Shown: positions 168 through 12,228 of the stretch, piece by piece
How the letters are laid out: each line of letters starts with the position of its first letter
Numbering within the stretch: position 1 is the first letter of the stretch
Origin: an uncultured Candidatus Saccharibacteria bacterium
Lineage (GTDB): Bacteria; Patescibacteriota; Minisyncoccia; UBA6257; 2-01-FULL-56-20
Direction of reading: 5' to 3'
NCBI GenBank assembly: GCA_964637795.1
Contig: CAZWWZ010000001.1
Location: 1 to 28,694 of the forward strand
DNA: 28,694 nucleotides
Translations under genes and position numbers: made by a program
The notes under the pieces: generated by a model
Databases searched by the model: none
Told to the model about the DNA's origin: nothing
The model's input: only the letters and a program-made list of their open reading frames with translations

Positions 168-185
168 TTGCGGAGGCGGAAGGAT
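168..185. repeat. 18-bp direct repeat of the tRNA-Ser 3' end (att-like duplication, distal copy)
   Basis: ttgcggaggcggaaggat at 168-185 is identical to 10169-10186, the reverse complement of the tRNA-Ser T-stem/acceptor end. Confidence 0.9.
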
Positions 186-304
186 AGGCACATAAGAATG
201 CGCCGAATCGGTTCGCTCGTCGAAAATAAGAACTCATCCCGAGTTTTTATTTTCTCCTCGCTGCCAATTCTCGAACCCTAAAGGGTTCTCATCCTTCCGC
301 CGCA
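168..304. repeat. tRNA-anchored palindromic (MITE/REP-like) element
   Basis: Inverted arms ggcggaaggat (175-185) / atccttccgcc (291-301); internal hairpins at 187-204, 222-235/241-254 (14 bp) and 273-288. Confidence 0.7.
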
Positions 305-309
305 GATGC

Positions 310-347
310 AATCAAAAAGAATGGCGAAATGGCCATCCTTTTTGATT
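310..347 (-). terminator. hairpin, probable pre-integration terminator of tRNA-Ser
   Basis: aatcaaaaag (310-319) / ctttttgatt (338-347) plus atggc/gccat inner stem; it would directly follow the tRNA if 350-10176 is excised. Confidence 0.5.
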
Positions 348-348
348 A

Positions 349-429
349 ATGCGGAGCGTAGTAGACGACATTAGAACCTATTGGCAGACCACCAGCGGGT
401 CGGTTTTTATACCAAGCTTTTCGCTTTAG
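349..429 (+). other. left junction (core tgcggag 350-356) plus detached in-frame 3' end of the serine recombinase gene (xRSVVDDIRTYWQTTSGSVFIPSFSL*)
   Basis: 7-bp core shared with 10170-10176 in the same codon phase; open frame to TAG at 427-429; AATGTC (10158-10163) / GACATT (367-372) inverted repeat flanks the core in the reconstructed attP. Confidence 0.65.
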
Positions 430-441
430 AATATAAAATCC

Positions 442-891
442 CTAGAGAATTATAGATTTATATTCTCCCTCAACTTGATTACTTTTCATAACTCCACTAA
501 TAATGGCACTCATAATAAGTTTAGGGATTTTTTCAGGAAACATAATTCCACCATTTCCAACCTTTTTAATAAGATTTTTAAGTGTTACGGGGTATACCTG
601 ATTGCAATTTATAACACTTGGAACAGTTAGACGCGGAAAATCTGTTGGAGTAATAAACACCAATGTTGATGTATCTCCACTAATCTTCTTAACAAATTCT
701 AATCGACCAGCAATTTTCGAAGTCACCGTTGCAAGAACGATAAAATCGTCCGTCTTTGGTGAAGAGTTTAATACAATAAAATAACGTTGTTTTTTAGAAT
801 TGCTGCCATCCCGATTCGCTATATTATCCCAATAAAAAAAGACTGTTCCGCGTTCAATGGATGCAATTATTTCCTTGGCTAATGGTGCCAT
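442..891 (-). CDS. PemK/MazF-like toxin (putative endoribonuclease)
   Basis: RGTV...KKQRYFIVLN...LATVTSK...SVINCNQV pattern typical of the PemK fold; 7 bp downstream of a Panacea antitoxin gene. Confidence 0.7.
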   Translation of the reverse strand: MAPLAKEIIASIERGTVFFYWDNIANRDGSNSKKQRYFIVLNSSPKTDDFIVLATVTSKIAGRLEFVKKISGDTSTLVFITPTDFPRLTVPSVINCNQVYPVTLKNLIKKVGNGGIMFPEKIPKLIMSAIISGVMKSNQVEGEYKSIIL

Positions 892-898
892 GAAACAT

Positions 899-1516
899 TT
901 AGCGCTCGAGCGACGCTGAAACCTCCCTATTCTCGAGATAAATGTTTTTTGCCGATTCTAGATGGTTCTCGGAAAATTCAAAAATTCTAGATGATTTAGC
1001 ATTCTTTGAATCAAGGAAAAAATCTAGATAGTCCATTTTCACCCGTTTCTTCCCACCCTCAATTTCAGCTTTATGTTTTGCCCATTCTGGATAGCTGTGC
1101 GAAATAATATCAGCAAGTTCAAATTGATCCTTGTCTCCAAATTCGTTATATGCAGCCTCCATCGCTTCAATGTCGGATTGCGAAAATGAATCAAAATCAA
1201 CGTCTTTTTTTGATGTAACCGTGAGTAATTTTACATCACCAGCTGGATGTCCCAAAAACGATTTGGCGTATTCTAATGAATTCTTATCCAACTTATTCTC
1301 GTCAAAATTTGCCGTATCCAACACATTCGAAGCGACGGGTCCGAATTTCATCGCCCAATATATATCCCCCACTACTGGCCGCCCATACTTTCTCAAGTGA
1401 TATCTATCAGCAAAATAAACAAGCTTGATAGCTTTCATTTTGTTTATTTTGCCATCTTTCTTTCGGGCAAAATAATTTATCGCTTGGGTACTTTTTTTAC
1501 AGAGTGGCGTCACCAT
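899..1516 (-). CDS. Panacea (DUF4065/SocA-like) antitoxin
   Basis: KMKAIKLVYFADRYHLRKYGRPVVGDIYWAMKFGPV matches the family KL-Y..AD..G.P..AM..GPV motif; C-terminal HSYPEW. Confidence 0.85.
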   Translation of the reverse strand: MVTPLCKKSTQAINYFARKKDGKINKMKAIKLVYFADRYHLRKYGRPVVGDIYWAMKFGPVASNVLDTANFDENKLDKNSLEYAKSFLGHPAGDVKLLTVTSKKDVDFDSFSQSDIEAMEAAYNEFGDKDQFELADIISHSYPEWAKHKAEIEGGKKRVKMDYLDFFLDSKNAKSSRIFEFSENHLESAKNIYLENREVSASLER

Positions 1517-1603
1517 AGCTAAATAATGATAAACGGACGAGAACCTTTAGTAACTTATTAAGTTAATAATAACACTTTTGTTCACGGATAGTCAACGTGG
1601 ATT

Positions 1604-1789
1604 TTATCTGCTTTTTTTGAACGGTGTCCCTGTATTATGTGGAGGAAATGGACTTTTTGATGGTTTTGTCGATGGCTCTTTCGTGATAACAGGCTTTTGC
1701 GGTTGCTTGCTCGGAACTTGCCGCACCGGTGCCACAGGCTGCTGTTTCTTGACTGGTTGTGTGGGTAAATTTTGTGGGTTTTCAGTCAT
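1604..1789 (-). CDS. Pro/Lys/Gln-rich microprotein (61 aa)
   Basis: Starts 14 bp after the upstream stop in a same-strand operon; low-complexity, probably disordered. Confidence 0.55.
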   Translation of the reverse strand: MTENPQNLPTQPVKKQQPVAPVRQVPSKQPQKPVITKEPSTKPSKSPFPPHNTGTPFKKSR

Positions 1790-1803
1790 AATTAAATTAT
1801 ACC

Positions 1804-2238
1804 TTAAATAAATATCAGGATAAACACAGAAAACAGCAATAAAATAAGAGCGGCCTCATAAGCCGAAGCCTTACGTCCGGCAACAGTTCTTTTCTGACTT
1901 AGAGCATATTGAGCATCACTAATAGATTGCTTTAATAATTCTTCTTCCGGCATGTCGAGGTAATCAAGATGTTCTTCTGGGTCGACTGCAATTGGTAAAT
2001 AAGTTCTTGGCCACATTGCAAAAATAAGCAGGGCTGTTGATATCCCCATAATAACCAGCCCTAGAATATCGGAACAGATAAGATTATCAGAAAGAAAGGC
2101 AGCATAGCCCGCCATAAAAGCAATCTCAATTCCCGCAAGAGTTCCCGACTTTCCGTCGATCACATTGTCGGCATCGGTGATAGTGTTATAATTCTGCCTT
2201 ACGCCATCAAGAATAATTTTGAGATTTTCCTTTGTCAT
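1804..2238 (-). CDS. three-TM membrane protein, distantly Pycsar-effector (DUF5706)-like
   Basis: Three hydrophobic segments; D-x-K before TM1, WPR after TM2, R-K before the terminal TM3. Confidence 0.5.
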   Translation of the reverse strand: MTKENLKIILDGVRQNYNTITDADNVIDGKSGTLAGIEIAFMAGYAAFLSDNLICSDILGLVIMGISTALLIFAMWPRTYLPIAVDPEEHLDYLDMPEEELLKQSISDAQYALSQKRTVAGRKASAYEAALILLLFSVFILIFI

Positions 2239-2240
2239 GA

Positions 2241-3083
2241 TTATTGATTATCTAAAATGGTACTCGTGCAGGTATATCCGTCACGTTTAAGGAACGCGGT
2301 GGCCATGTTCTGAAAGCCACTCCAGAACATATTGGTGCCGGTTGCGGTATCGCCTGCGCGATCACGCTTAATATTAGCTTGCACATCGTTGTTGCAATAT
2401 GCTTTTTCGGTATCGTAAGAGAACTCATCATACGCCATCTGAAATGTAATAATTTTGTCACGAAAAAGATCACCCGCCGTATCGAACACGCCCATATAGT
2501 CTTCGAGCTGAGTGTCCGTAAATCCCGTTTTCAGGGGTGAATATGTGTGTGGATGACTTTCGATAGCGGTAAGGATTGCTGCATACTTATTACTATTAAG
2601 TTGGTCGCTTATACTGAGCACAAATTGCGCCGATGCTTGATTTGTCGAATCTTGAATTTGTCCCCTTAAAACATCTGCCTGTTGGCCAGTATAATAGGCA
2701 ACAAAGCACGTTGCCACCAAAGAAAGTAATGCTATAAAAATCGGCATGACGCTACCGATACAATCGAGGTAATGGCCCATAGAAATCAACCTATATCCCT
2801 TGGCCCCTAATTTTAATCTATCGTTTTCTTGCTTAATAAAGCCCTTTTCAATACAACTTTCTAAATAGAATTCGATTTTCTTGAAGTCCTCAACTTCGTT
2901 GGGATCTTTTATTTCTGAAGCAAGCGCACGCCGGAGAACGGGCTGCTTAATTGTTTTCAAAAATTCCTCTCTTGGAATACCATCTAAGCGATAGCGATTT
3001 TGACTCTTTGCACCATAAAGCATTCCATAGAGTTCTTTGACAAGCTTTCTCTCGGACAAGTGGAATTTATTCGAATGGGTCAT
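2241..3083 (-). CDS. wHTH-like N-terminus + TM + DUF4760-like domain protein
   Basis: YLESCIEKGFIK...LKLGAKG wing motif; TM VMPIFIALLSLVATCFVAYY; DYMGVFD..G.LF..KII...F...IKRDR...W..FQ.MA resembles DUF4760. Confidence 0.55.
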   Translation of the reverse strand: MTHSNKFHLSERKLVKELYGMLYGAKSQNRYRLDGIPREEFLKTIKQPVLRRALASEIKDPNEVEDFKKIEFYLESCIEKGFIKQENDRLKLGAKGYRLISMGHYLDCIGSVMPIFIALLSLVATCFVAYYTGQQADVLRGQIQDSTNQASAQFVLSISDQLNSNKYAAILTAIESHPHTYSPLKTGFTDTQLEDYMGVFDTAGDLFRDKIITFQMAYDEFSYDTEKAYCNNDVQANIKRDRAGDTATGTNMFWSGFQNMATAFLKRDGYTCTSTILDNQ

Positions 3084-3090
3084 TTCTTAT

Positions 3091-3099
3091 AGTGTAACA
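3091..3099 (-). promoter_or_regulatory. extended -10 promoter (TGtTACACT), leaderless start of the membrane/TA operon
   Basis: TG-N-TACACT lies 7 nt upstream of the ATG at 3083. Confidence 0.55.
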
Positions 3100-3217
3100 A
3101 ATTGACGGCAGTCCACACTATTTCGCAAATCGTCGTACTATTCCATACTATTTTAGTATAGGGATGCTTAGTGATTTTGTGCGGGCCGACTGAACCGAAG
3201 AATGACTGTAAATAACA

Positions 3218-3700
3218 ATGATTAACAATAAATACAAGAAACAGATGGCCACTATCCTTGAACGGATCGACGTAAAGGAATATATGTGGCGCTACAGCCA
3301 CGGCGAGGCAAAACGTGATACTTATCAGACAACAGAGCGAGTATCTCCAAATTCCATACGGATCAACTGGCCGACCGGCATGTCGGTTATGGGATCGCAC
3401 AATTTAAGGGATGTTTCCGGCGAACTATGTTGGAGGAATCAGGTGATTGAACGCGTCCCCTCAAATTTGGGCAAGAACAGAGGCAGTATATGCTATTTTA
3501 TCTGCAACGATTGCGGCCGGAGAACGAAATACCTTTACTTCCAAAATTATCTTTACGCTCCGTTGTGCCGGAGATGCTGCGGCTTGCCCTATCGTCAGCC
3601 AACGCGGCCCGAAAGGAAAATATCGCGCTATCTTAGCAGGCATCCTGAAATGGCGACGCAAATTATTGATTCATTTATTGCTCCGACAGGAGGGTTATAG
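3218..3700 (+). CDS. zinc-ribbon hypothetical protein of mobile elements
   Basis: YFICNDCGRRTKYLY...LCRRCCGLPY: two CxxC pairs in the F-C-x2-CGRR-LY-CR-C-L-Y pattern. Confidence 0.7.
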   Translation: MINNKYKKQMATILERIDVKEYMWRYSHGEAKRDTYQTTERVSPNSIRINWPTGMSVMGSHNLRDVSGELCWRNQVIERVPSNLGKNRGSICYFICNDCGRRTKYLYFQNYLYAPLCRRCCGLPYRQPTRPERKISRYLSRHPEMATQIIDSFIAPTGGL

Positions 3701-3746
3701 AGGCGATTTTACTGTTATTTACTGCAAATAACAGATGATATTGGTG

Positions 3747-4736
3747 TTAATGGACGGCGTATGAGGCGGGAAGGATGCGTCCAAGAGTTCCGGCCTCTCC
3801 GACCTCTATTGCGGTCGGTATTCCAATATAGCAGTCATTGGTCTCGTCTATTGCCAATCCACCGGAATTTCCAGGATCAATTTTTGCGGATGTCGTGAGA
3901 TAAATACCGTCTTGTCCAGCGATTATTCCTTCTGTTACGGTTGGATCAATCGTTGAAAGCACGGACTGAAATTGTCCTGCATTTGTTCCGTAATCAGGAT
4001 ATCCAAGAACGACTATGGATTCTCCCGTAGGCGGGTTACTATCACAAGCGAAATGATCGTTACGCGCACGGGCATTCAAAGAAAGAGTAGGGTTCGTGAC
4101 GGACTCTTTCATTCCTGAAAGATATGCAATATCACTTCCATCGGATGTAAATTGTATTTTGCCATGAGCGGGAGTCTCAGGGATAACGACTGGCTCACTC
4201 GGAATCAAATAACTCGTATATGATGGCTCATCAACGAGAGTAATATCGTAAAATTGGTAATTATCATTGGGAAAAGCGACGTCACATTGGGTCGCCATTC
4301 CATATTGAGAGTTATAAGCTATATGGCGATTAGTGATAATTGTCGGTACTGAATTAAAGTTCGCAAGTAATCCTGACCCTGATTCTTTAAGATACCATTT
4401 GAAGGGTGTCATATTGGGATAGTTCCAATAGCATTCGACATAGGCCGTACTCTTTTGCCATTCAGCAACTATGTCAGGAAGAGACTTCGACGTGTTATTT
4501 GAAGATGAAGAAATTACATTCTGACCCGTCGTATTGTTTATATCAGAATTTGTTGAAGCCTGTTGTGTGCTGGTTGTGTTCGTATTTGTTTGGTTATTGG
4601 GCTGACCTGAGCTGGTGATATAGCTTATAAAGCCGACCAAAATCGCCAGCCCAATTAAGGCTACAATAATGACAATGGCGGGTGAACTCTTGTCGTTTTT
4701 ATTGATCGGCCGTTCGTCGTATTGAACTTCTTTCAT
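3747..4736 (-). CDS. membrane-anchored trypsin-like (S1/HtrA-type, no PDZ) serine protease
   Basis: N-terminal TM, S/T/N-rich linker, catalytic motifs ITNRH, DIAYL and IDPGNSGG. Confidence 0.85.
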   Translation of the reverse strand: MKEVQYDERPINKNDKSSPAIVIIVALIGLAILVGFISYITSSGQPNNQTNTNTTSTQQASTNSDINNTTGQNVISSSSNNTSKSLPDIVAEWQKSTAYVECYWNYPNMTPFKWYLKESGSGLLANFNSVPTIITNRHIAYNSQYGMATQCDVAFPNDNYQFYDITLVDEPSYTSYLIPSEPVVIPETPAHGKIQFTSDGSDIAYLSGMKESVTNPTLSLNARARNDHFACDSNPPTGESIVVLGYPDYGTNAGQFQSVLSTIDPTVTEGIIAGQDGIYLTTSAKIDPGNSGGLAIDETNDCYIGIPTAIEVGEAGTLGRILPASYAVH

Positions 4737-4781
4737 TGGTGAAGCAAAGTTTTCTTGCGCCCATTTATCATGGCATATTTT

Positions 4782-5861
4782 CTATATGGCAAGCATATAT
4801 GATAATGCTGGTGTATCGGCAATTTCTCCCGATGAGTTCATTTGGCCGATAACACATCCATCGGTCAATGAGACAGCGGTGCTGCCTTGCATTCCGTTCG
4901 GTACTGCCCCTATGTTGGTTGTATCGTAATATCCTGACGTGCCAGTGATAACGCCCGTGAGGGTCTGGTTTGTCGAATTGATTGGCCACCCAAACACGGC
5001 GACGGAATCCCCAACTGATGGTCTTGTCACGCAATAATTTATCTTCTTCGCATAATTCGTGAGATAGCCATTCGGTGTAGCGATGTTGATCTGCGCATAA
5101 TCAATGTTTATATTGTTTGCGACTATAGGGCTTGTGCCATAGGCAGCAGTCGTTGCGTAAGATCCTACAGTGAAGGTTGAAAGGCCGCCCGCATAGAGAT
5201 TGGCACCGGCTGGGAATTGAATATCGCATGTAGCAGGAGCGAGAACTGAACCTGTGTACGAGGTATTTATAACACCACCCAAAACTGTGCTTATGAAATA
5301 AGGAGCATACGAACTGTTGTTATAGGAGTTGAGTATGCCGTTCGAGCTTTGCGAAAAAAGTACATCGCCATATCTGTTATACCAATCGCAGGTAACGAAG
5401 GCGAGTTGAGGCGCGAGTTCTGAGTATAGAGCACTTGCAGAATAAGTTTGCGGAATGGGCACCGATTGAGTCGGCGTATTTTGAGTGGAATTCTGATTTT
5501 CTTGATTACTCGTGGTTGGAGCAGGCTGACTCACTGGTGCGGAAACGTTCATAGAATTTAGGAAGGCTCTCGTTATCGAACCGCAATAGCCTGATGCCGG
5601 AGAGATGTTATTCGCGGTCTGAAGTTGCTCCAAGGCAGTTCGAGTGCCGCTTCCGAAGTAACCCGTCGGGGTAGAGACAGATGTCAGATAACCTTTATTG
5701 ATTAAAATTTGCTGTAGGGCGATCACATCTGGCCCAGTCGAGCCGATAGTGAGGTTTTGGTTGAATTGATATGACGAGCCAGTGGCCTGTGCACGTACAA
5801 ACGAGGTGCTCGAAAAAACGAGGACTGCAATTATTGGCAAAGCTGAAAGATATTTTTTCAT
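4782..5861 (-). CDS. secreted peptidoglycan-binding protein with a degenerate (inactive) trypsin-like domain
   Basis: Signal peptide; PG_binding_1 motif (NLTIGSTGPDVIALQQIL...GYFGSGTRTAL..LQ...GYCGSITRAFLN); C-terminus aligns with the 3747-4736 protease but His and Ser are lost. Confidence 0.75.
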   Translation of the reverse strand: MKKYLSALPIIAVLVFSSTSFVRAQATGSSYQFNQNLTIGSTGPDVIALQQILINKGYLTSVSTPTGYFGSGTRTALEQLQTANNISPASGYCGSITRAFLNSMNVSAPVSQPAPTTSNQENQNSTQNTPTQSVPIPQTYSASALYSELAPQLAFVTCDWYNRYGDVLFSQSSNGILNSYNNSSYAPYFISTVLGGVINTSYTGSVLAPATCDIQFPAGANLYAGGLSTFTVGSYATTAAYGTSPIVANNINIDYAQINIATPNGYLTNYAKKINYCVTRPSVGDSVAVFGWPINSTNQTLTGVITGTSGYYDTTNIGAVPNGMQGSTAVSLTDGCVIGQMNSSGEIADTPALSYMLAI

Positions 5862-5887
5862 GTTGATAGTTTTTTATAGTTTCTTAT

Positions 5888-6056
5888 GATGGCGTGGCGA
5901 TCGGCCCATCAACACAAAACACCACGCTGACCTGATGCCTTACGGCATCCATACCCTTTCGGATATGACATCTTGCGGAAGTAGGCCAAACGTGGTGTTT
6001 GGTATCCGCAAGATGATTTTTTGCGCCATGCCCCGATTACTCAGGGTTTAGGCGAC
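5888..6056 (-). ncRNA. candidate structured RNA leader (GNRA tetraloops, 11-nt receptor variant, loop-downstream pairing)
   Basis: Three GNRA-capped hairpins on the minus strand; CCUAAA/CAUGG internal loop; 11-bp stem 5969-5979/6005-6015 whose loop pairs with 5912-5932. Confidence 0.7.
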
Positions 6057-6162
6057 TGATTAAATTGTGCTTTTATTTTGTCACAAATTTCCTAAAAAGG
6101 AAAATTCTGAAGATTGAAAAGTGCCTAGCATTTTCTAAAATCATAGGTAAAATAAGGATCAA

Positions 6163-6891
6163 ATGACAATGACAATAGAGGAAAAATACGATAATGCCAT
6201 TCAGATGTTTCAAAGCTATTACGATGGCAAAAACGAATCATTGCGTATCTCAAGTTTTGTTCTTGAAGAAAATGGTTTTGGGGAAGACTTTTGGCAAATG
6301 CTTTGCCCTAGATTAGAAAAGGATGGAATTCTAAAAGAGTGGCCATCCTTTTTTTACAAAACAGGATATTTCAGAAATGAAAGGCAATTCGATCAACTGA
6401 TAAATGATTTTAATAAAACTTTTAATTATGCTTCTGAATTTAAGGATTTTGCCATTACGGAAAGGGAGAAAATACAAAAAGAAATAAACTCCATGGAGCA
6501 TGTTTATCCTTTTGTTACTGACGGGGAAAAACTCAATGCGGTATATAACAAAGTTATCCGCAAATCAAAAAATGTATTAGCGGAAAAAGTCATATCATTT
6601 GATGATAAAAGCGCGAGAATTCTAATCGGGGAAATTTCAATTCAGCTACCTCCTTTTCAAAATGAGCACTGTCTCTGTCGCGTTATTTTTAGATGTAAAA
6701 TCCACGAGCCGATTGATTGGTCGGTGGTCTACAAAGAAATGACTGGCGATATTGACGAGATTGCCGACAAAACTAAAAAACGTTCCGTGCAAGACACGAT
6801 GTATGCTGTGAATAATCGGGTCAAAAAAGAGGCGAATACTGACGATGCATTGATGTCATGGAGGGGTAAAAGTATAGCTCGAAATTTTTAG
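6163..6891 (+). CDS. putative regulator with C-terminal OmpR-like winged helix
   Basis: LCRVIF...IDWSVVYKEMTG...SVQDTMYAVNNRVK...LMSWRGKSIARN resembles an effector-type wHTH. Confidence 0.55.
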   Translation: MTMTIEEKYDNAIQMFQSYYDGKNESLRISSFVLEENGFGEDFWQMLCPRLEKDGILKEWPSFFYKTGYFRNERQFDQLINDFNKTFNYASEFKDFAITEREKIQKEINSMEHVYPFVTDGEKLNAVYNKVIRKSKNVLAEKVISFDDKSARILIGEISIQLPPFQNEHCLCRVIFRCKIHEPIDWSVVYKEMTGDIDEIADKTKKRSVQDTMYAVNNRVKKEANTDDALMSWRGKSIARNF

Positions 6892-6923
6892 ACTCGAATT
6901 CGACCCGTAATTGACTCACTAAC
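6891..6923 (+). promoter_or_regulatory. three phased direct repeats (11-bp period) overlapping a TTGACT -35-like hexamer
   Basis: GACTCGAATTC / GACCCGTAATT / GACTCACTAAC starting at 6891, 6902 and 6913. Confidence 0.5.
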
Positions 6924-6932
6924 CATTCAGGT

Positions 6933-6963
6933 AAAGTCGAAGCAAGATGAGCTTCGGCTTTTT
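6933..6963 (+). terminator. intrinsic terminator/attenuator hairpin
   Basis: gtcgaagc (6936-6943) / gcttcggc (6951-6958) followed by a T run; an alternative partner gccggagc lies at 6970-6977. Confidence 0.55.
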
Positions 6964-6988
6964 AATTTCGCCGGAGCCATCGTAATAG

Positions 6989-7237
6989 ATGACTCTTCAA
7001 TTAAACGAAAATACCTTTTTCAAAACCACAGACCTCGCATTGGCGACGACTATTTCGCTTTCCTATCCGCTTGAAACCATAGATCGGGGGAATCGCAAGG
7101 CGCAATTTGTTTTCAAGCGAGATGTTGGGCTGGATGAATTGATCACAAGCTACTGGCGCAGGGAGCTAAAGGTCGAGCCGCAGGCTTACTACGACGCTCT
7201 GCGCGTCACAAAAGGGCAGCTCTACGAAAATCAATGA
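6989..7237 (+). CDS. DUF5659-like protein
   Basis: FKTTDLALATTISL-YPL..IDR...KAQFVFKR...YWRRELKVEPQAYYDAL..TK..LY pattern. Confidence 0.7.
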   Translation: MTLQLNENTFFKTTDLALATTISLSYPLETIDRGNRKAQFVFKRDVGLDELITSYWRRELKVEPQAYYDALRVTKGQLYENQ

Positions 7238-7443
7238 TCTCGTACACTGCTCTCCAGGAATTTAGAACTTTATGGCTTGAGGAATTTGGTGAACAGATTT
7301 CCGAGGAACAAGCCATGGAAATCGCGCCGAAACTCCTCAATCTTTTCAACCATATCTATCGGCCCGTAAAGAAAACATGGGTAGAGAGTTTAGAGCCGGA
7401 ATTAAAACAACAACCAAACGCTAATGAAAACACAAAACACTGA
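7234..7443 (+). CDS. small helical hypothetical protein of CPR integrative elements
   Basis: ATGA overlap with the upstream stop; ALQEFRTLWLEEFGEQISEEQAMEIA.KLLNLF..IYRP pattern. Confidence 0.7.
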   Translation: MISYTALQEFRTLWLEEFGEQISEEQAMEIAPKLLNLFNHIYRPVKKTWVESLEPELKQQPNANENTKH

Positions 7444-7687
7444 AATTCAAGCTACACGTCCGAGCGAATTTGATCTCTTAAAGAAACATCCTCGCCGCGC
7501 TCAGTGCTCAAAATGCGGTTCGAAGAAAAGCCATACCAATCCGATGGCCCGATGCTGGGAATGCAAAAGAAAATTCTGCTACGACCATATTTGGGGCGGG
7601 CAGATCAATGACAGTATGGGGCAGAATGAAGAAATTCGAGATATATGCGATTCCTGCAAAAAGGCGAAAGGATATAGAAACCTATGA
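7424..7687 (+). CDS. Cys/His-rich zinc-finger protein
   Basis: CSKC...CWEC...CYDH...CDSC; overlaps the upstream gene. Confidence 0.65.
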   Translation: MKTQNTEIQATRPSEFDLLKKHPRRAQCSKCGSKKSHTNPMARCWECKRKFCYDHIWGGQINDSMGQNEEIRDICDSCKKAKGYRNL

Positions 7688-7697
7688 AATAATCTTG

Positions 7698-7770
7698 GTT
7701 TCTGATGTTGGCTTCGGACACAAGACCGCCATGTCCTTGTCCGAGGCCAATATCAGAAACAGGACATGGC
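7698..7770 (+). promoter_or_regulatory. RNA switch controlling translation of the rep-like gene
   Basis: 23-bp stem 7698-7720/7738-7760 (2 G-U pairs); loop gccatgtcct (7728-7737) is the exact complement of aggacATGgc (7761-7770). Confidence 0.75.
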
Positions 7771-8254
7771 AATGGAGAAAAAAGAGATCAGTAATTTTCA
7801 GGTTAAATATGGGAGGCGTACGCTGTATTTTGGCTTCGTTCAAACTCCGAACCTCCTCATACAAAATAAAAAAGCACTTGGCCTGACAACGTCCGAACTC
7901 TTTTTATTGCAATATCTCATGTCATACGGATCAGCTCATGAAATCGCTGATTGGGTATATCCCTCGCTAAAGGAGATGTCGAAAATGACCGGATTATCAA
8001 CAGGGACCATCCACGCAGCAAAGGATGGACTGGTAAATAAAGGATTTATCGAGATCCTTAAAAAGGAAAATCCTTATGGGACGAATTATTACAATCTTTT
8101 CCCCATTAGAGAAAAGCTAGAACATATCGCCACGCGGAAAATAGAACAGCAATTCGTGAATAAAAAAATGAACCAGAAAAAATACGATGAACTTATGGGA
8201 GATACATCTACAAAGGTCGCTAAAAAGTTCTTTGAAACGAATGAGGATGTTTAA
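7766..8254 (+). CDS. DnaD-N/HTH_36-like replication initiator candidate
   Basis: PNLLIQNKKALGLTTSELFLLQYL...YPSLKEMSKMTGLSTGTIHAAKDGLVNKGFIEI. Confidence 0.55.
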   Translation: MAMEKKEISNFQVKYGRRTLYFGFVQTPNLLIQNKKALGLTTSELFLLQYLMSYGSAHEIADWVYPSLKEMSKMTGLSTGTIHAAKDGLVNKGFIEILKKENPYGTNYYNLFPIREKLEHIATRKIEQQFVNKKMNQKKYDELMGDTSTKVAKKFFETNEDV

Positions 8255-8357
8255 TCTCTAAACAGCCCCCTATTCGCTCTCTAAATACTATCAATAAGTC
8301 TTAATATTCTTTCTTATAAGGGGGAAGGAACTTAAGAAAAACGAGCTGAAAGAAAAA

Positions 8358-8385
8358 TTGATAAAGATAAACCATTTGTTATAAT
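8358..8385 (+). promoter_or_regulatory. sigma70 promoter of the recombinase transcript
   Basis: TTGATA (8358-8363)-N16-TATAAT (8380-8385) with extended TG (8377-8378); predicted TSS ~8391-8392. Confidence 0.75.
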
Positions 8386-8391
8386 GATTAT

Positions 8392-8522
8392 GTTGATCCG
8401 TGCAGAAACTTATTCCGAGAGGTTTTTTATTAGGCAATGCTCCCTTAAAGCGGCGGTTTCTGCCAGCATTGCCACTCCTTTCGGAGCGACTGTGCGGATC
8501 AACCAGAGACCGTCGCTTTAAG
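8392..8522 (+). ncRNA. candidate structured 5' leader of the recombinase mRNA
   Basis: 14-bp closing stem 8392-8405/8490-8503; 9-bp stem 8433-8441/8465-8473; loop 8444-8462 is complementary (19 bp, 2 G-U) to 8504-8522. Confidence 0.7.
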
Positions 8523-8533
8523 TTTCTAAAAAT

Positions 8534-10318
8534 ATGAAAAATCAAAACAGTGATGGTATTAGATATATCGCATATTCCCGCAAGAGCACGGAAGGAGAAG
8601 ATCGGCAGGTATTGTCCCTTGATGACCAAAAGCGTGAGATTGAGGAAATAATCCGGCGCGACGATCTTAAGGTTGTCGAAAGCTACCTCGGTACGGGCCA
8701 CGGCGAGAGCTTCTCGGCCCATAAACGCGGCAGACTAATCTTCGGCCATGTCATGCAAGAGATAGAATCCGGCAAGGCAAACGGCTTGCTCGTGTGGCAT
8801 CCGAACCGCATCGCCCGCAATGCCTTTGACGGAGGATTGGTCATTACTCTCATGGACGAGGGTAAACTTGCTGAGATCAGAACGCCGTATCGCACCTACC
8901 AAAACACGCCAGACGACAAATTCTTCTTGCAGCTTGAGTTTGGTATGGCCAAAAAATCATCCGATGATAATGGAGTTGCCGTTAAGCGCGGCCTAAAGAC
9001 AAAAGTGCAGATGGGCTGGTATCCATGCCGCGCTCCCCTCGGCTATCAGAACACCATCATCAAAGGCAAGGGCTTGAATGAGATCGAAAAAGACCCTGAA
9101 CGGTTCGATATCGTTAGGCGGATGTGGGATATGATGCTCACCGGCAACTACACGCCACCGCAGATTATGAGGATCGCCAACGAGGAATGGCATTTCAAAA
9201 CACGGCCCACAAAACGCCATAAAGGGCTAAAACCTTTGGGCCGAAGCAATCTCTATAAGATATTTACCAACCCCTTTTATTACGGCTGGTTCTCCTACGG
9301 CAGGCCAGCGCAACTCTATAAAGGCACGCACGAGCCGATGATCACCGAAGAGGAATTCGATCGCGTACAAAAAATTCTTGGCAAAGATGGCAAGCCGCGG
9401 CCGCAGACCCATCGTTTCGCCTTCACGGGATTGATGAGATGCGGGAATTGCGGAGCAATGATAACGGCTGAGGAGAAAATGAAGCGGCAACAGAACGGTA
9501 ACATCCATCACTACATTTACTATCACTGCACCAAACGGAAGGATGAAAACTGCACCGAAAAAATGGTCGAATTGAAGAACTTGGATGCGCAGATCGACGT
9601 GCTCGTAAAACACCTTGCCATTTCCGATAAATTCAAAGGCTGGGCCATTAAGTATCTCCACGAAATCCGACAGAACGAGGCAGTAAGTAATCAAGAGATA
9701 TTTGAGAGCAAACAGAAACAGCTTGCGCGGATCACCGACCAGCTTCAAAGCTTACTTTTGAAATACACGTCACCGGAGAACGCTAATGAGGAGATTATGA
9801 CCGCGCAGGAGCTTCAGACGCTCAAGGGCGGCCTCTTAAAACAGAAATCTGCCCTTGAGAACGATGTTGCCACGCAAGGCAAGGCCATTGAGGAATGGGT
9901 TACATTAAGTGAACGAACATTCAACTTCGCCCGCTATGCCAAGATATGGTTCGACAATGGCACGATGGACACGAAACGGGCCGTCTTAGCAGCCCTCGGT
10001 TCGAACCTCCTTATCAAAGACCAAAAACTCAACGTAGAGCTGTATCCTTTCTATCAAGTGATCTTCGACAACGTCGAAAAGGTGGAAAAAGAATTACTCA
10101 AGGTTCGAACCTCGGAAAATATAACGAACAAAAGGCAAATCGCCGCAATTTTGGCGAAATGTCCTACCTTGCGGAGGCGGAAGGATTCGAACCTTCGAGG
10201 GGATTTCTCCCCTAACATCTTAGCAGGATGCTGCCTTCAGCCACTCGGCCACGCCTCCATGTCGAACATTCCGAAGTCTAACGGAAAAACGCCATCTTTT
10301 CAATGCTCCAAGTTCTGA
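8534..10318 (+). CDS. large serine recombinase (resolvase + recombinase + Zn-ribbon + coiled coil); 3' end reads antisense through tRNA-Ser
   Basis: YSRKSTE catalytic motif, HPNRIARN, GWYPCRAPLGY, GTHEPMIT.EEFDRVQ, FTGLMRCGNCG...YYHC. Confidence 0.95.
   Translation: MKNQNSDGIRYIAYSRKSTEGEDRQVLSLDDQKREIEEIIRRDDLKVVESYLGTGHGESFSAHKRGRLIFGHVMQEIESGKANGLLVWHPNRIARNAFDGGLVITLMDEGKLAEIRTPYRTYQNTPDDKFFLQLEFGMAKKSSDDNGVAVKRGLKTKVQMGWYPCRAPLGYQNTIIKGKGLNEIEKDPERFDIVRRMWDMMLTGNYTPPQIMRIANEEWHFKTRPTKRHKGLKPLGRSNLYKIFTNPFYYGWFSYGRPAQLYKGTHEPMITEEEFDRVQKILGKDGKPRPQTHRFAFTGLMRCGNCGAMITAEEKMKRQQNGNIHHYIYYHCTKRKDENCTEKMVELKNLDAQIDVLVKHLAISDKFKGWAIKYLHEIRQNEAVSNQEIFESKQKQLARITDQLQSLLLKYTSPENANEEIMTAQELQTLKGGLLKQKSALENDVATQGKAIEEWVTLSERTFNFARYAKIWFDNGTMDTKRAVLAALGSNLLIKDQKLNVELYPFYQVIFDNVEKVEKELLKVRTSENITNKRQIAAILAKCPTLRRRKDSNLRGDFSPNILAGCCLQPLGHASMSNIPKSNGKTPSFQCSKF
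10172..10258 (-). tRNA. tRNA-Ser(GCT)
   Basis: Acceptor GGAGGCG/CGCCTCC, G discriminator, anticodon loop CT-GCT-AA, long variable arm, TTCGAAT T-loop; no encoded CCA. Confidence 0.97.
10275..10303 (-). promoter_or_regulatory. tRNA-Ser promoter
   Basis: TTGAAA-N17-TAGACT on the minus strand. Confidence 0.6.
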
Positions 10319-11884: not shown

Positions 11885-11967
11885 TGCCCGGGGTGGGATT
11901 CGGACCCACAAACCCTTTCGGGTCAAGGATTTTAAGTCCTCTGCGTAAACCATTCCGCCACCCGGGC
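11885..11967 (-). tRNA. tRNA-Leu(TAA), T-loop variant TCCGAAT
   Basis: Acceptor GCCCGGG/CCCGGGC, anticodon loop CT-TAA-AA, long variable arm, A discriminator. Confidence 0.93.

Positions 11968-12156: not shown

Positions 12157-12228
<72 letters not shown>

Follow-up and report, generated by a model that had tools for sequence, protein, structure and literature searches.

LOOT RNAs in integrative elements of Patescibacteria: a covarying helix and U-tract beyond the Rfam model, and a possible role as an attenuator-like leader

An integrative element with divergent operons and a large serine recombinase

The window analysed here is a stretch of 28,694 nt from an uncultured Candidatus Saccharibacteria bacterium (assembly GCA_964637795.1, contig CAZWWZ010000001.1, positions 1 to 28,694, forward strand), and contains an integrated element of approximately 10 kb (168-10186) with a perfect 18-nt direct repeat, TTGCGGAGGCGGAAGGAT, at both ends (168-185 and 10169-10186). 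The second copy of the repeat is the 3' end of a tRNA-Ser gene (10172-10258, minus strand), and G+C content is 0.40-0.45 inside the element against 0.47-0.55 outside. At the right end of the element lies a large serine recombinase (LSR) gene (8534-10318, plus strand; Pfam Resolvase, Recombinase and Zn_ribbon_recom), which is divergent from the LOOT RNA that is the subject of this study, and whose reading frame spans the entire tRNA-Ser gene on the other strand. The insertion site is flanked by a cluster of tRNA genes (11885-11967, 10172-10258 and 12157-12228), two of which, those at 11885-11967 and 10172-10258 on the minus strand, are long-arm tRNAs of 83 and 87 nt.

All ORFs between 442 and 5861 lie on the LOOT strand and inside the element, forming a one-strand operon of about 5.5 kb that encodes a PG-binding/pseudo-protease protein, a trypsin-like protease, unknown proteins, and a SocA/Panacea and MazF-like pair. 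The first gene of this leftward operon (4782-5861, minus strand) specifies a signal peptide, a PG_binding_1 domain and a trypsin-like domain without the GNSGG serine. It is paralogous in the trypsin-like domain (E = 2e-6) to the gene at 3747-4736 (minus strand), with GMQGS where the product of the latter has the catalytic GNSGG, and to judge from these residues it may encode an inactive protease. At the far end of the element, a MazF-like protein (a weak PHROG match) sits beside a SocA/Panacea-domain antitoxin (442-891 and 899-1516, minus strand), and the two genes are likely to be a toxin-antitoxin pair. The opposite operon (6163-10318) encodes a 242-aa protein (6163-6891), a DUF5659 protein, small ORFs, a DnaD-like protein and the recombinase; phage structural genes were not detected in the element.

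Relatives of the RNA were sampled with one exact pattern for its first helix, P1. A scan of IMG/VR yielded 4 clear LOOTs among 44 matches, while a stricter P1 pattern applied to GTDB species genomes yielded at least 120 loci; among the matches listed we parsed 90 distinct LOOTs, the window included, and 'universal' is used below to mean universal within that sample, among the matches listed. The loci of the relatives are blocks of at most 8 kb, many of them cut at their ends. Patescibacteria (CPR) lineage names are attached to at least 53 LOOT-positive records, an assignment that differs from the earlier picture, since to our knowledge LOOT was previously known solely from unclassified metagenome sequence. 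Ten LOOT-positive MAG records (L049, L057, L079, L086, L092, L099, L104, L107, L109 and L110) are titled 'uncultured Gammaproteobacteria bacterium'; these are probably mislabelled or misbinned assemblies, a suspicion we hold because LOOT otherwise sits in Patescibacteria.

The association with recombinases extends to these relatives. An LSR gene was found by tblastn in 45 of the 90 LOOT loci, and in 39 of those 45 it lies upstream on the opposite strand, compared to 25% expected by chance. Among 45 divergent upstream neighbours, 11 are LSRs, with start codons 140-200 nt from LOOT, and no upstream protein family other than the LSRs was recurrent. Moreover, a tRNA or tmRNA gene lies at or overlaps the recombinase 3' end in the window and in loci L154, L083 and L046, and lies within 120 nt of it in L090 and L124, so that insertion of serine recombinases at tRNA/tmRNA genes appears to recur across these genomes. 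The overlaps are with a tmRNA in L154 (952-1268) and with tRNAs in L083 (7890-7964) and L046 (3490-3559).

In loci that have a common LSR and LOOT module, DNA similarity ends 21-80 nt after P4, the last helix of the RNA, and the cargo differs. This pattern suggested that LOOT might lie at the edge of an element and read into host DNA, a reading that we reject in the case of the window, in which the element, as delimited by the 18-nt repeat, extends 5.7 kb past LOOT to its far boundary, and that also fits poorly with the tight placement of co-oriented start codons at other loci. Integron-like arrays of LOOT sites were likewise considered and rejected, as two copies occur in just one of the 109 loci listed, namely L115, in which they lie on the same strand (4053-4197 and 6724-6828, plus strand) 2.6 kb apart. 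Given a divergent control region followed by a one-strand operon, the element context therefore places LOOT as the leader of the cargo operon.

The LOOT fold and a conserved helix 3' of it

A cmscan of the whole window against Rfam matched the RNA to the LOOT RNA family (RF03000) with 82.7 bits, against a gathering score of 46.4 (E = 2e-14). The match covers window positions 5934-6054 on the minus strand and model positions 1-121 of 121, and at the gathering threshold the scan returned nothing in the window besides LOOT and tRNAs. A preliminary description, made from the sequence alone, had proposed a novel structured RNA; that proposal falls because the RF03000 match is full-length and above the gathering score. 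It is thus near certain that the feature belongs to this known family, and since the motif is already catalogued no new RNA class is added. The helices, GNRA loops, receptor-like loop and coordinates given in that description nevertheless all prove correct on the minus strand when compared with the sequence, the Rfam alignment and the predicted fold.

The LOOT motif stems from the screen of Weinberg et al. 2017 (PMC5737381), although it is not mentioned in the main text of that paper. One passage of a further report describes about 43 base pairs, six helices and many cross-covariations (PMC7657543), and an account of Rfam 15 records that two covarying pairs were added (PMC11701678). A literature search found no functional study of LOOT.

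The core of the RNA (5934-6054, minus strand) shares with RF03000 the same six modelled helices, the receptor-like CCUAAA/CAUGG loop, the GAAA loop on P3 and the GNRA loops on P1b and P4. P1 has its outer pairs at 6051-6054/6024-6027 and an internal loop of CCUAAA (6047-6052) opposite CAUGG (6026-6030), and carries P1b (6031-6046), a CCCUGA-GUAA-UCGGGG hairpin with a GUAA loop. P2a (6005-6015/5969-5979) is an 11-bp stem that closes a 25-nt loop (5980-6004), within which the Rfam model includes P2b (5986-6002), a local hairpin of 6 bp in the P2 apex. P3 (5950-5967, CAUAUCC-GAAA-GGGUAUG) and P4 (5934-5949, GAUGCC-GUAA-GGCAUC) follow, and downstream of the core a final small stem has its 3' end at 5888, 26 nt upstream of the ATG (5859-5861); all of these lie on the minus strand. 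The minimum free energy (MFE) fold of the region recovers every core helix, and a 201-nt region reaches -76.3 kcal/mol compared to -49.7 +/- 4.0 in dinucleotide shuffles (z = -6.7; 0 of 200 shuffles as good). In the main alignment, a sequence-only MAFFT alignment of 79 loci, all 8 pairs of P3 and all 4 pairs of P4 show changes on both sides.

The internal loop of P1 is laid out like the 11-nt GAAA tetraloop receptor of group I and II introns and RNase P (CCUAAG...UAUGG), and P3 offers a GAAA loop, yet P1 departs from the receptor by two changes (CCUAAA...CAUGG) that put an A.C in place of the canonical G.U. The receptor-like loop and the GAAA loop of P3 probably dock and lock the LOOT fold together. 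The invariance of the receptor-like loop across the sample arises because the search pattern demanded that loop.

The conserved unit continues past the Rfam model, which stops at P4, through an element B and its U-tract and often through a further element, C. We use element A for the apical region of P2 (5983-6006, minus strand in the window), which can pair locally as P2b or at long range with B, and element B for the 20-23 nt directly 3' of P4 (5911-5933, minus strand), which are the complement of A and terminate in the U-tract UUUUGUGUU (5911-5919). A perfect 10-bp core joins AAACACCACG (5991-6000) to CGUGGUGUUU (5917-5926), and RNAfold extends the helix to 20 pairs between 5983-6006 and 5911-5933. 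The preliminary description had noted the pairing of this loop with 5912-5932, including the 10-bp perfect core, and the pairing is real: complementarity of A to B, with B ending in a U-tract, was found in 90 of the 90 loci parsed among the matches listed, and B is also present in 10 further full-length profile matches. The helix lies outside the Rfam model, for every Rfam match ends at P4, as is the case in 18 of 18 sampled relatives, which score 68-94 bits with RF03000.

Several comparisons bear on this helix. When the P2 apex was folded against the first 30 nt after P4 without reliance on an alignment, cognate A:B duplexes had a mean of -25.7 kcal/mol, compared to -14.7 +/- 5.8 for non-cognate pairs and -11.7 +/- 4.1 for shuffled tails. 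In the 79-locus MAFFT alignment, covariation, which the preliminary description had named as one check to make, is evident in all 16 pairs of the A:B core, each of which has changed on both sides, with 87.8% of cells paired; one column pair, for example, reads AU in 25 sequences, GC in 21, CG in 19, UG in 7 and UA in 3. Over the whole structure 88.0% of cells are paired, compared to 66.0% when shuffled (0 of 500 as high) and 38-47% when the partners are slid, and RNAalifold chose the A:B helix unprompted. Additionally, A:B pairs in the relatives include 236 of G.U type and 48 of A.C type; constraint therefore acts on RNA of the LOOT strand, which agrees with the transcribed strand called at the outset. 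Judged from these comparisons of sequences, the A:B pairing is real, universal in the sample and as well supported as the published helices.

Element B typically consists of a G-rich run followed by CUUUUUGU, and in the window it reads ...GCGUGGUGUUUUGUGUU. Its G-rich part pairs with the C-rich core of A, while its U's pair with A/G-rich sequence located 5' to the core, such that the end of the helix nearest the U-tract consists of three conserved C-G pairs (alignment columns 112-114/202-204) and then CUUUUUGU, in a long-range helix with no local hairpin. The U-tract is at least 90% conserved and stays U opposite either A or G (columns 109/207). As modelled, the A:B helix and U-tract would be laid out like an intrinsic terminator, with the difference that its 'loop' holds the 3' arm of P2a together with P3 and P4.

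The local alternative is also conserved. P2b folds at -5.6 kcal/mol compared to -2.2 in shuffles, being better in 79 of 79 sequences (p = 1e-14), and, as both A:B and P2b are conserved, A therefore has two mutually exclusive conserved partners. Element C (5888-5899, minus strand), which begins a few nucleotides after the U-tract, provides a third pairing, with the 5' half of B as its partner: CGCCACGC (5892-5899) pairs with GCGUGGUG (5920-5927) of B, and in the MFE fold AUC (5888-5890) further pairs with GGU (5930-5932), placing the U-tract inside the B:C hairpin. Cognate specificity of B:C is modest (-13.0 vs -10.2 +/- 3.6), and we reject B:C as a strongly covarying helix. When the RNA is cut at the U-tract, the A:B fold with P2a opened is the MFE structure in 43 of 79 sequences (in the window, -63.3 vs -58.1), and when about 62 nt after P4 are included B pairs downstream, with C, in 58 of 79 (window -75.3). 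These nested MFE calculations leave out pseudoknots and tertiary contacts, and within them the energies of the competing folds look balanced.

Predicted transcription start and downstream genes

Upstream of P1 the conserved unit begins, unlike the Rfam model, at a conserved +1 box. In the window this box, ACAATTTAATC (6058-6068, minus strand), lies at the predicted transcription start and corresponds to the family consensus ACAAYTKAATA, to which 71 of 89 loci match at 9 or more of its 11 positions. Fifty loci have a TATAAT-like hexamer with no more than one mismatch, and in 41 of them its end lies 6-8 nt upstream of the box; in the window the putative -10 hexamer is CAAAAT (6075-6080, minus strand), a weak one that matches at 4 of 6 positions, with 6 nt between its end and the box. 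Spacing between the box and the -10 hexamer is fixed, while P1 follows the box at a distance of anywhere between 0 and 12 nt, and on this basis we take the box as the predicted start of transcription, which places LOOT in a promoter-proximal position. The box could also be an operator or an initial-transcribed-sequence element of these promoters rather than a piece of the folded RNA.

On the downstream side, an ORF of 45 aa or longer begins a median of 61 nt after P4 (interquartile range 49-70). With the cut-off raised to 80 aa, the closest feature on that side is the start of a same-strand gene in 74 of 86 loci (86%), at a median of 61-63 nt after P4, and is a convergent ORF in the other 12; the ATG in the window lies 72 nt after P4. 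A Shine-Dalgarno-like motif is present at just 12 of the 86 start codons. This position as a 5' leader differs from the type that Rfam gives for LOOT, which is sRNA.

The genes that follow LOOT are diverse. The 84 downstream products examined have no common family, spreading over 44 Pfam families of which the commonest, Zn_ribbon_3, occurs in 5 products, and they include zinc-ribbon membrane proteins, DUF805 proteins, DNA methylases, nucleases, a superinfection-immunity protein, peptidases and surface proteins; a transmembrane-like segment is found in 48 of 86. As the products share no family, an ordinary metabolite-riboswitch regulon is ruled out, and with no common function among the genes no ligand suggests itself. 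The cell-wall or cyclic di-nucleotide ligands for which the preliminary description had proposed probing consequently find no support in the genes downstream of LOOT at these 84 loci. As far as could be checked, with the Rfam model as the yardstick, the published description of the family contains neither the conserved helix 3' of P4 and its U-tract nor the promoter-proximal leader position and the association with recombinase elements.

Conformational switching and alternative roles

Our preferred explanation for these features, which we put at a little under an even chance, is that LOOT is a cis-acting, promoter-proximal, attenuator-like leader working as a conformational switch, as opposed to a free-standing small RNA. 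Transcription would start at the ACAAYTKAATA box, and the LOOT core, comprising P1, P2a with P2b, P3 and P4, would fold before B emerges directly after P4, complementary to the whole of the P2 apex and ending in the U-tract. Were B to invade P2b, a G+C-rich helix would abut the U-tract with an A-rich stretch opposite the U's, in the arrangement typical of an intrinsic terminator, and transcription would stop there, giving an RNA of about 150 nt. Were the LOOT fold to hold, polymerase would read on, C would then capture B, and the cargo operon of the element would be expressed. In this scheme we infer that termination takes place at the U-tract, which way the switch works and that some factor sets it, and a fuller version of it is more tentative still: LOOT would be the promoter-proximal regulatory leader of the cargo genes of LSR elements residing at tRNA/tmRNA genes in Patescibacteria, with the covarying helix and U-tract acting as a pseudoknot-type terminator switch set by an element or host signal.

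Some details constrain how such a terminator could work. Within window positions 5700-6250 there are 0 sites for a canonical local terminator hairpin (loop of 3-8 nt), and in an A:B terminator some 55 nt of structured RNA would take the place of the 'loop'. So long as P2a stays closed, the A:B helix is a pseudoknot, and about 20 bp probably cannot form inside the closed 25-nt loop; either P2a must therefore open, or the helix forms in part. C is transcribed after the U-tract and so cannot compete kinetically with termination. Canonical terminators are not in excess in the host part of the window (27 vs 23.9 expected), which therefore does not allow their use by this organism to be shown.

Several alternative hypotheses may account for the same observations. 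LOOT might be a free-standing, trans-acting small RNA of about 150 nt in which A:B is a constitutive pseudoknot or terminator, the U-tract is a fixed 3' end and the downstream gene is expressed independently. The sRNA type assigned by Rfam, the universality of the U-tract in the sample, the lack of common function among downstream genes and the 12 of 86 loci without an adjoining co-oriented long ORF are all in keeping with this. We nevertheless regard it as unlikely, albeit a serious contender, for only about 39 nt, including element C, separate the U-tract from the start codon and leave little room for a separate promoter, the tight spacing to a co-oriented gene start in 86% of loci points to a leader, and a static pseudoknot has no need of the conserved competing P2b hairpin. 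Alternatively, the A:B and B:C conformers might control stability, processing or translation of the cargo mRNA instead of termination. That C lies downstream of the U-tract, and acts only once made, that the full leader is predicted to adopt B:C in 58 of 79 sequences, and that the host part of the window is without an excess of canonical terminators would suit such a post-transcriptional switch, yet B and C lie off the ribosome-binding region (C to ATG, 25-35 nt) and a Shine-Dalgarno-like motif that could be sequestered is present at few start codons (12 of 86), and we consider it rather improbable.

A slightly poorer chance is given to processive antitermination, in which LOOT, like the put RNAs of HK022 or EAR of Bacillus, would stay on its polymerase and let the enzyme read through A:B with its U-tract as well as later terminators. 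Put RNAs act in cis without protein factors, and LOOT resembles them and EAR as a promoter-proximal structured RNA that heads a mobile-element operon and is followed by a terminator-like signal; in the window it stands at the divergent control region ahead of the operon of about 5.5 kb (442-5861), and a fold held rigid by its tetraloop and receptor would make a suitable docking surface. However, it has no detectable homology to putL, putR or EAR in sequence or structure (the Rfam scan matched LOOT alone besides tRNAs), is larger and has tetraloops and a receptor at the heart of its architecture; at many loci just one short gene follows LOOT, for which processivity is unneeded, and the complementarity of B to the P2 apex would be left unexplained. 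Finally, the oriented association with LSRs (present in 45 of 90 loci, upstream on the opposite strand in 39 of 45, and with the LSR start codon 140-200 nt from LOOT in more than 10 loci) raises the prospect that LOOT is an RNA partner of the recombinase, serving as a cofactor, directionality signal or guide in the spirit of the IS110 bridge RNAs. This seems very unlikely: we know of no RNA requirement in large serine recombinases, no similarity is visible by eye between A or B and the 18-nt att repeat of the window, half of the loci are without an LSR gene in the available sequence (many of these being cut at their ends), and it is two segments of one transcript that are complementary, as opposed to the RNA and the ends of the element.

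The attenuator-like leader can also be compared to established regulatory systems. As in attenuators and riboswitch platforms, mutually exclusive conserved pairings are present, A having two exclusive partners (P2b or B) and B another (C), and a U-tract abuts the G+C-rich end of A:B with an A-rich stretch opposite. LOOT differs from attenuators in that its candidate terminator helix is not a simple hairpin but long-range, enclosing or knotted with three other helices, and in that the alternative partner C lies downstream of the U-tract instead of upstream; it differs from attenuators and riboswitches alike in having no coherent regulon or candidate ligand among the 84 downstream products. The integron platform likewise has a recombinase divergent from a promoter and leader, followed by variable cargo, with similarity ending just past the leader, yet the recombinase of LOOT elements is a serine and not a tyrosine enzyme, repeated sites or arrays are lacking (two copies in one of 109 loci listed), and there is no evidence of recombination at LOOT.

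Patescibacteria are a very large and mostly uncultured group in which gene regulation and mobile elements are poorly known, and LOOT is strongly tied, with a preferred orientation, to their LSRs and to insertion at tRNA/tmRNA genes, with its own position fixed at the predicted transcription start before diverse, swappable genes. We suggest that RF03000 should be extended, given that a covarying helix, universal in the sample together with its U-tract, lies beyond the model and competes with a conserved hairpin that the model contains. The A:B helix and U-tract, the fixed position at the predicted transcription start and the link to LSRs make the function of LOOT testable. If the proposed switch is true, mobile-element cargo would bring its own regulatory module along in the form of LOOT, with a terminator made from a pseudoknot.

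Two minor features of the region upstream of LOOT complete the description of these loci. Divergent ORFs of approximately 233-265 aa without a Pfam match lie 43-151 nt upstream of LOOT (most of them 84-151 nt) in the window (6163-6891) and in loci L050, L070, L095, L099, L104, L108, L113, L130, L150, L158 and L161; no BLAST relation was detected among these ORFs of about 245 aa except that of L113 with L130, and they could be remote homologues, for example encoding a regulator. Moreover, in the window two pairs of direct repeats, 6093-6108/8059-8074 (16 nt, 94% identity, spacing 1966 nt) and 6179-6192/8175-8188 (14 nt, 93%, 1996 nt), link the intergenic region on the LOOT side to the 3' part of the DnaD-like gene, and could be due to chance or represent operator- or iteron-like sites.
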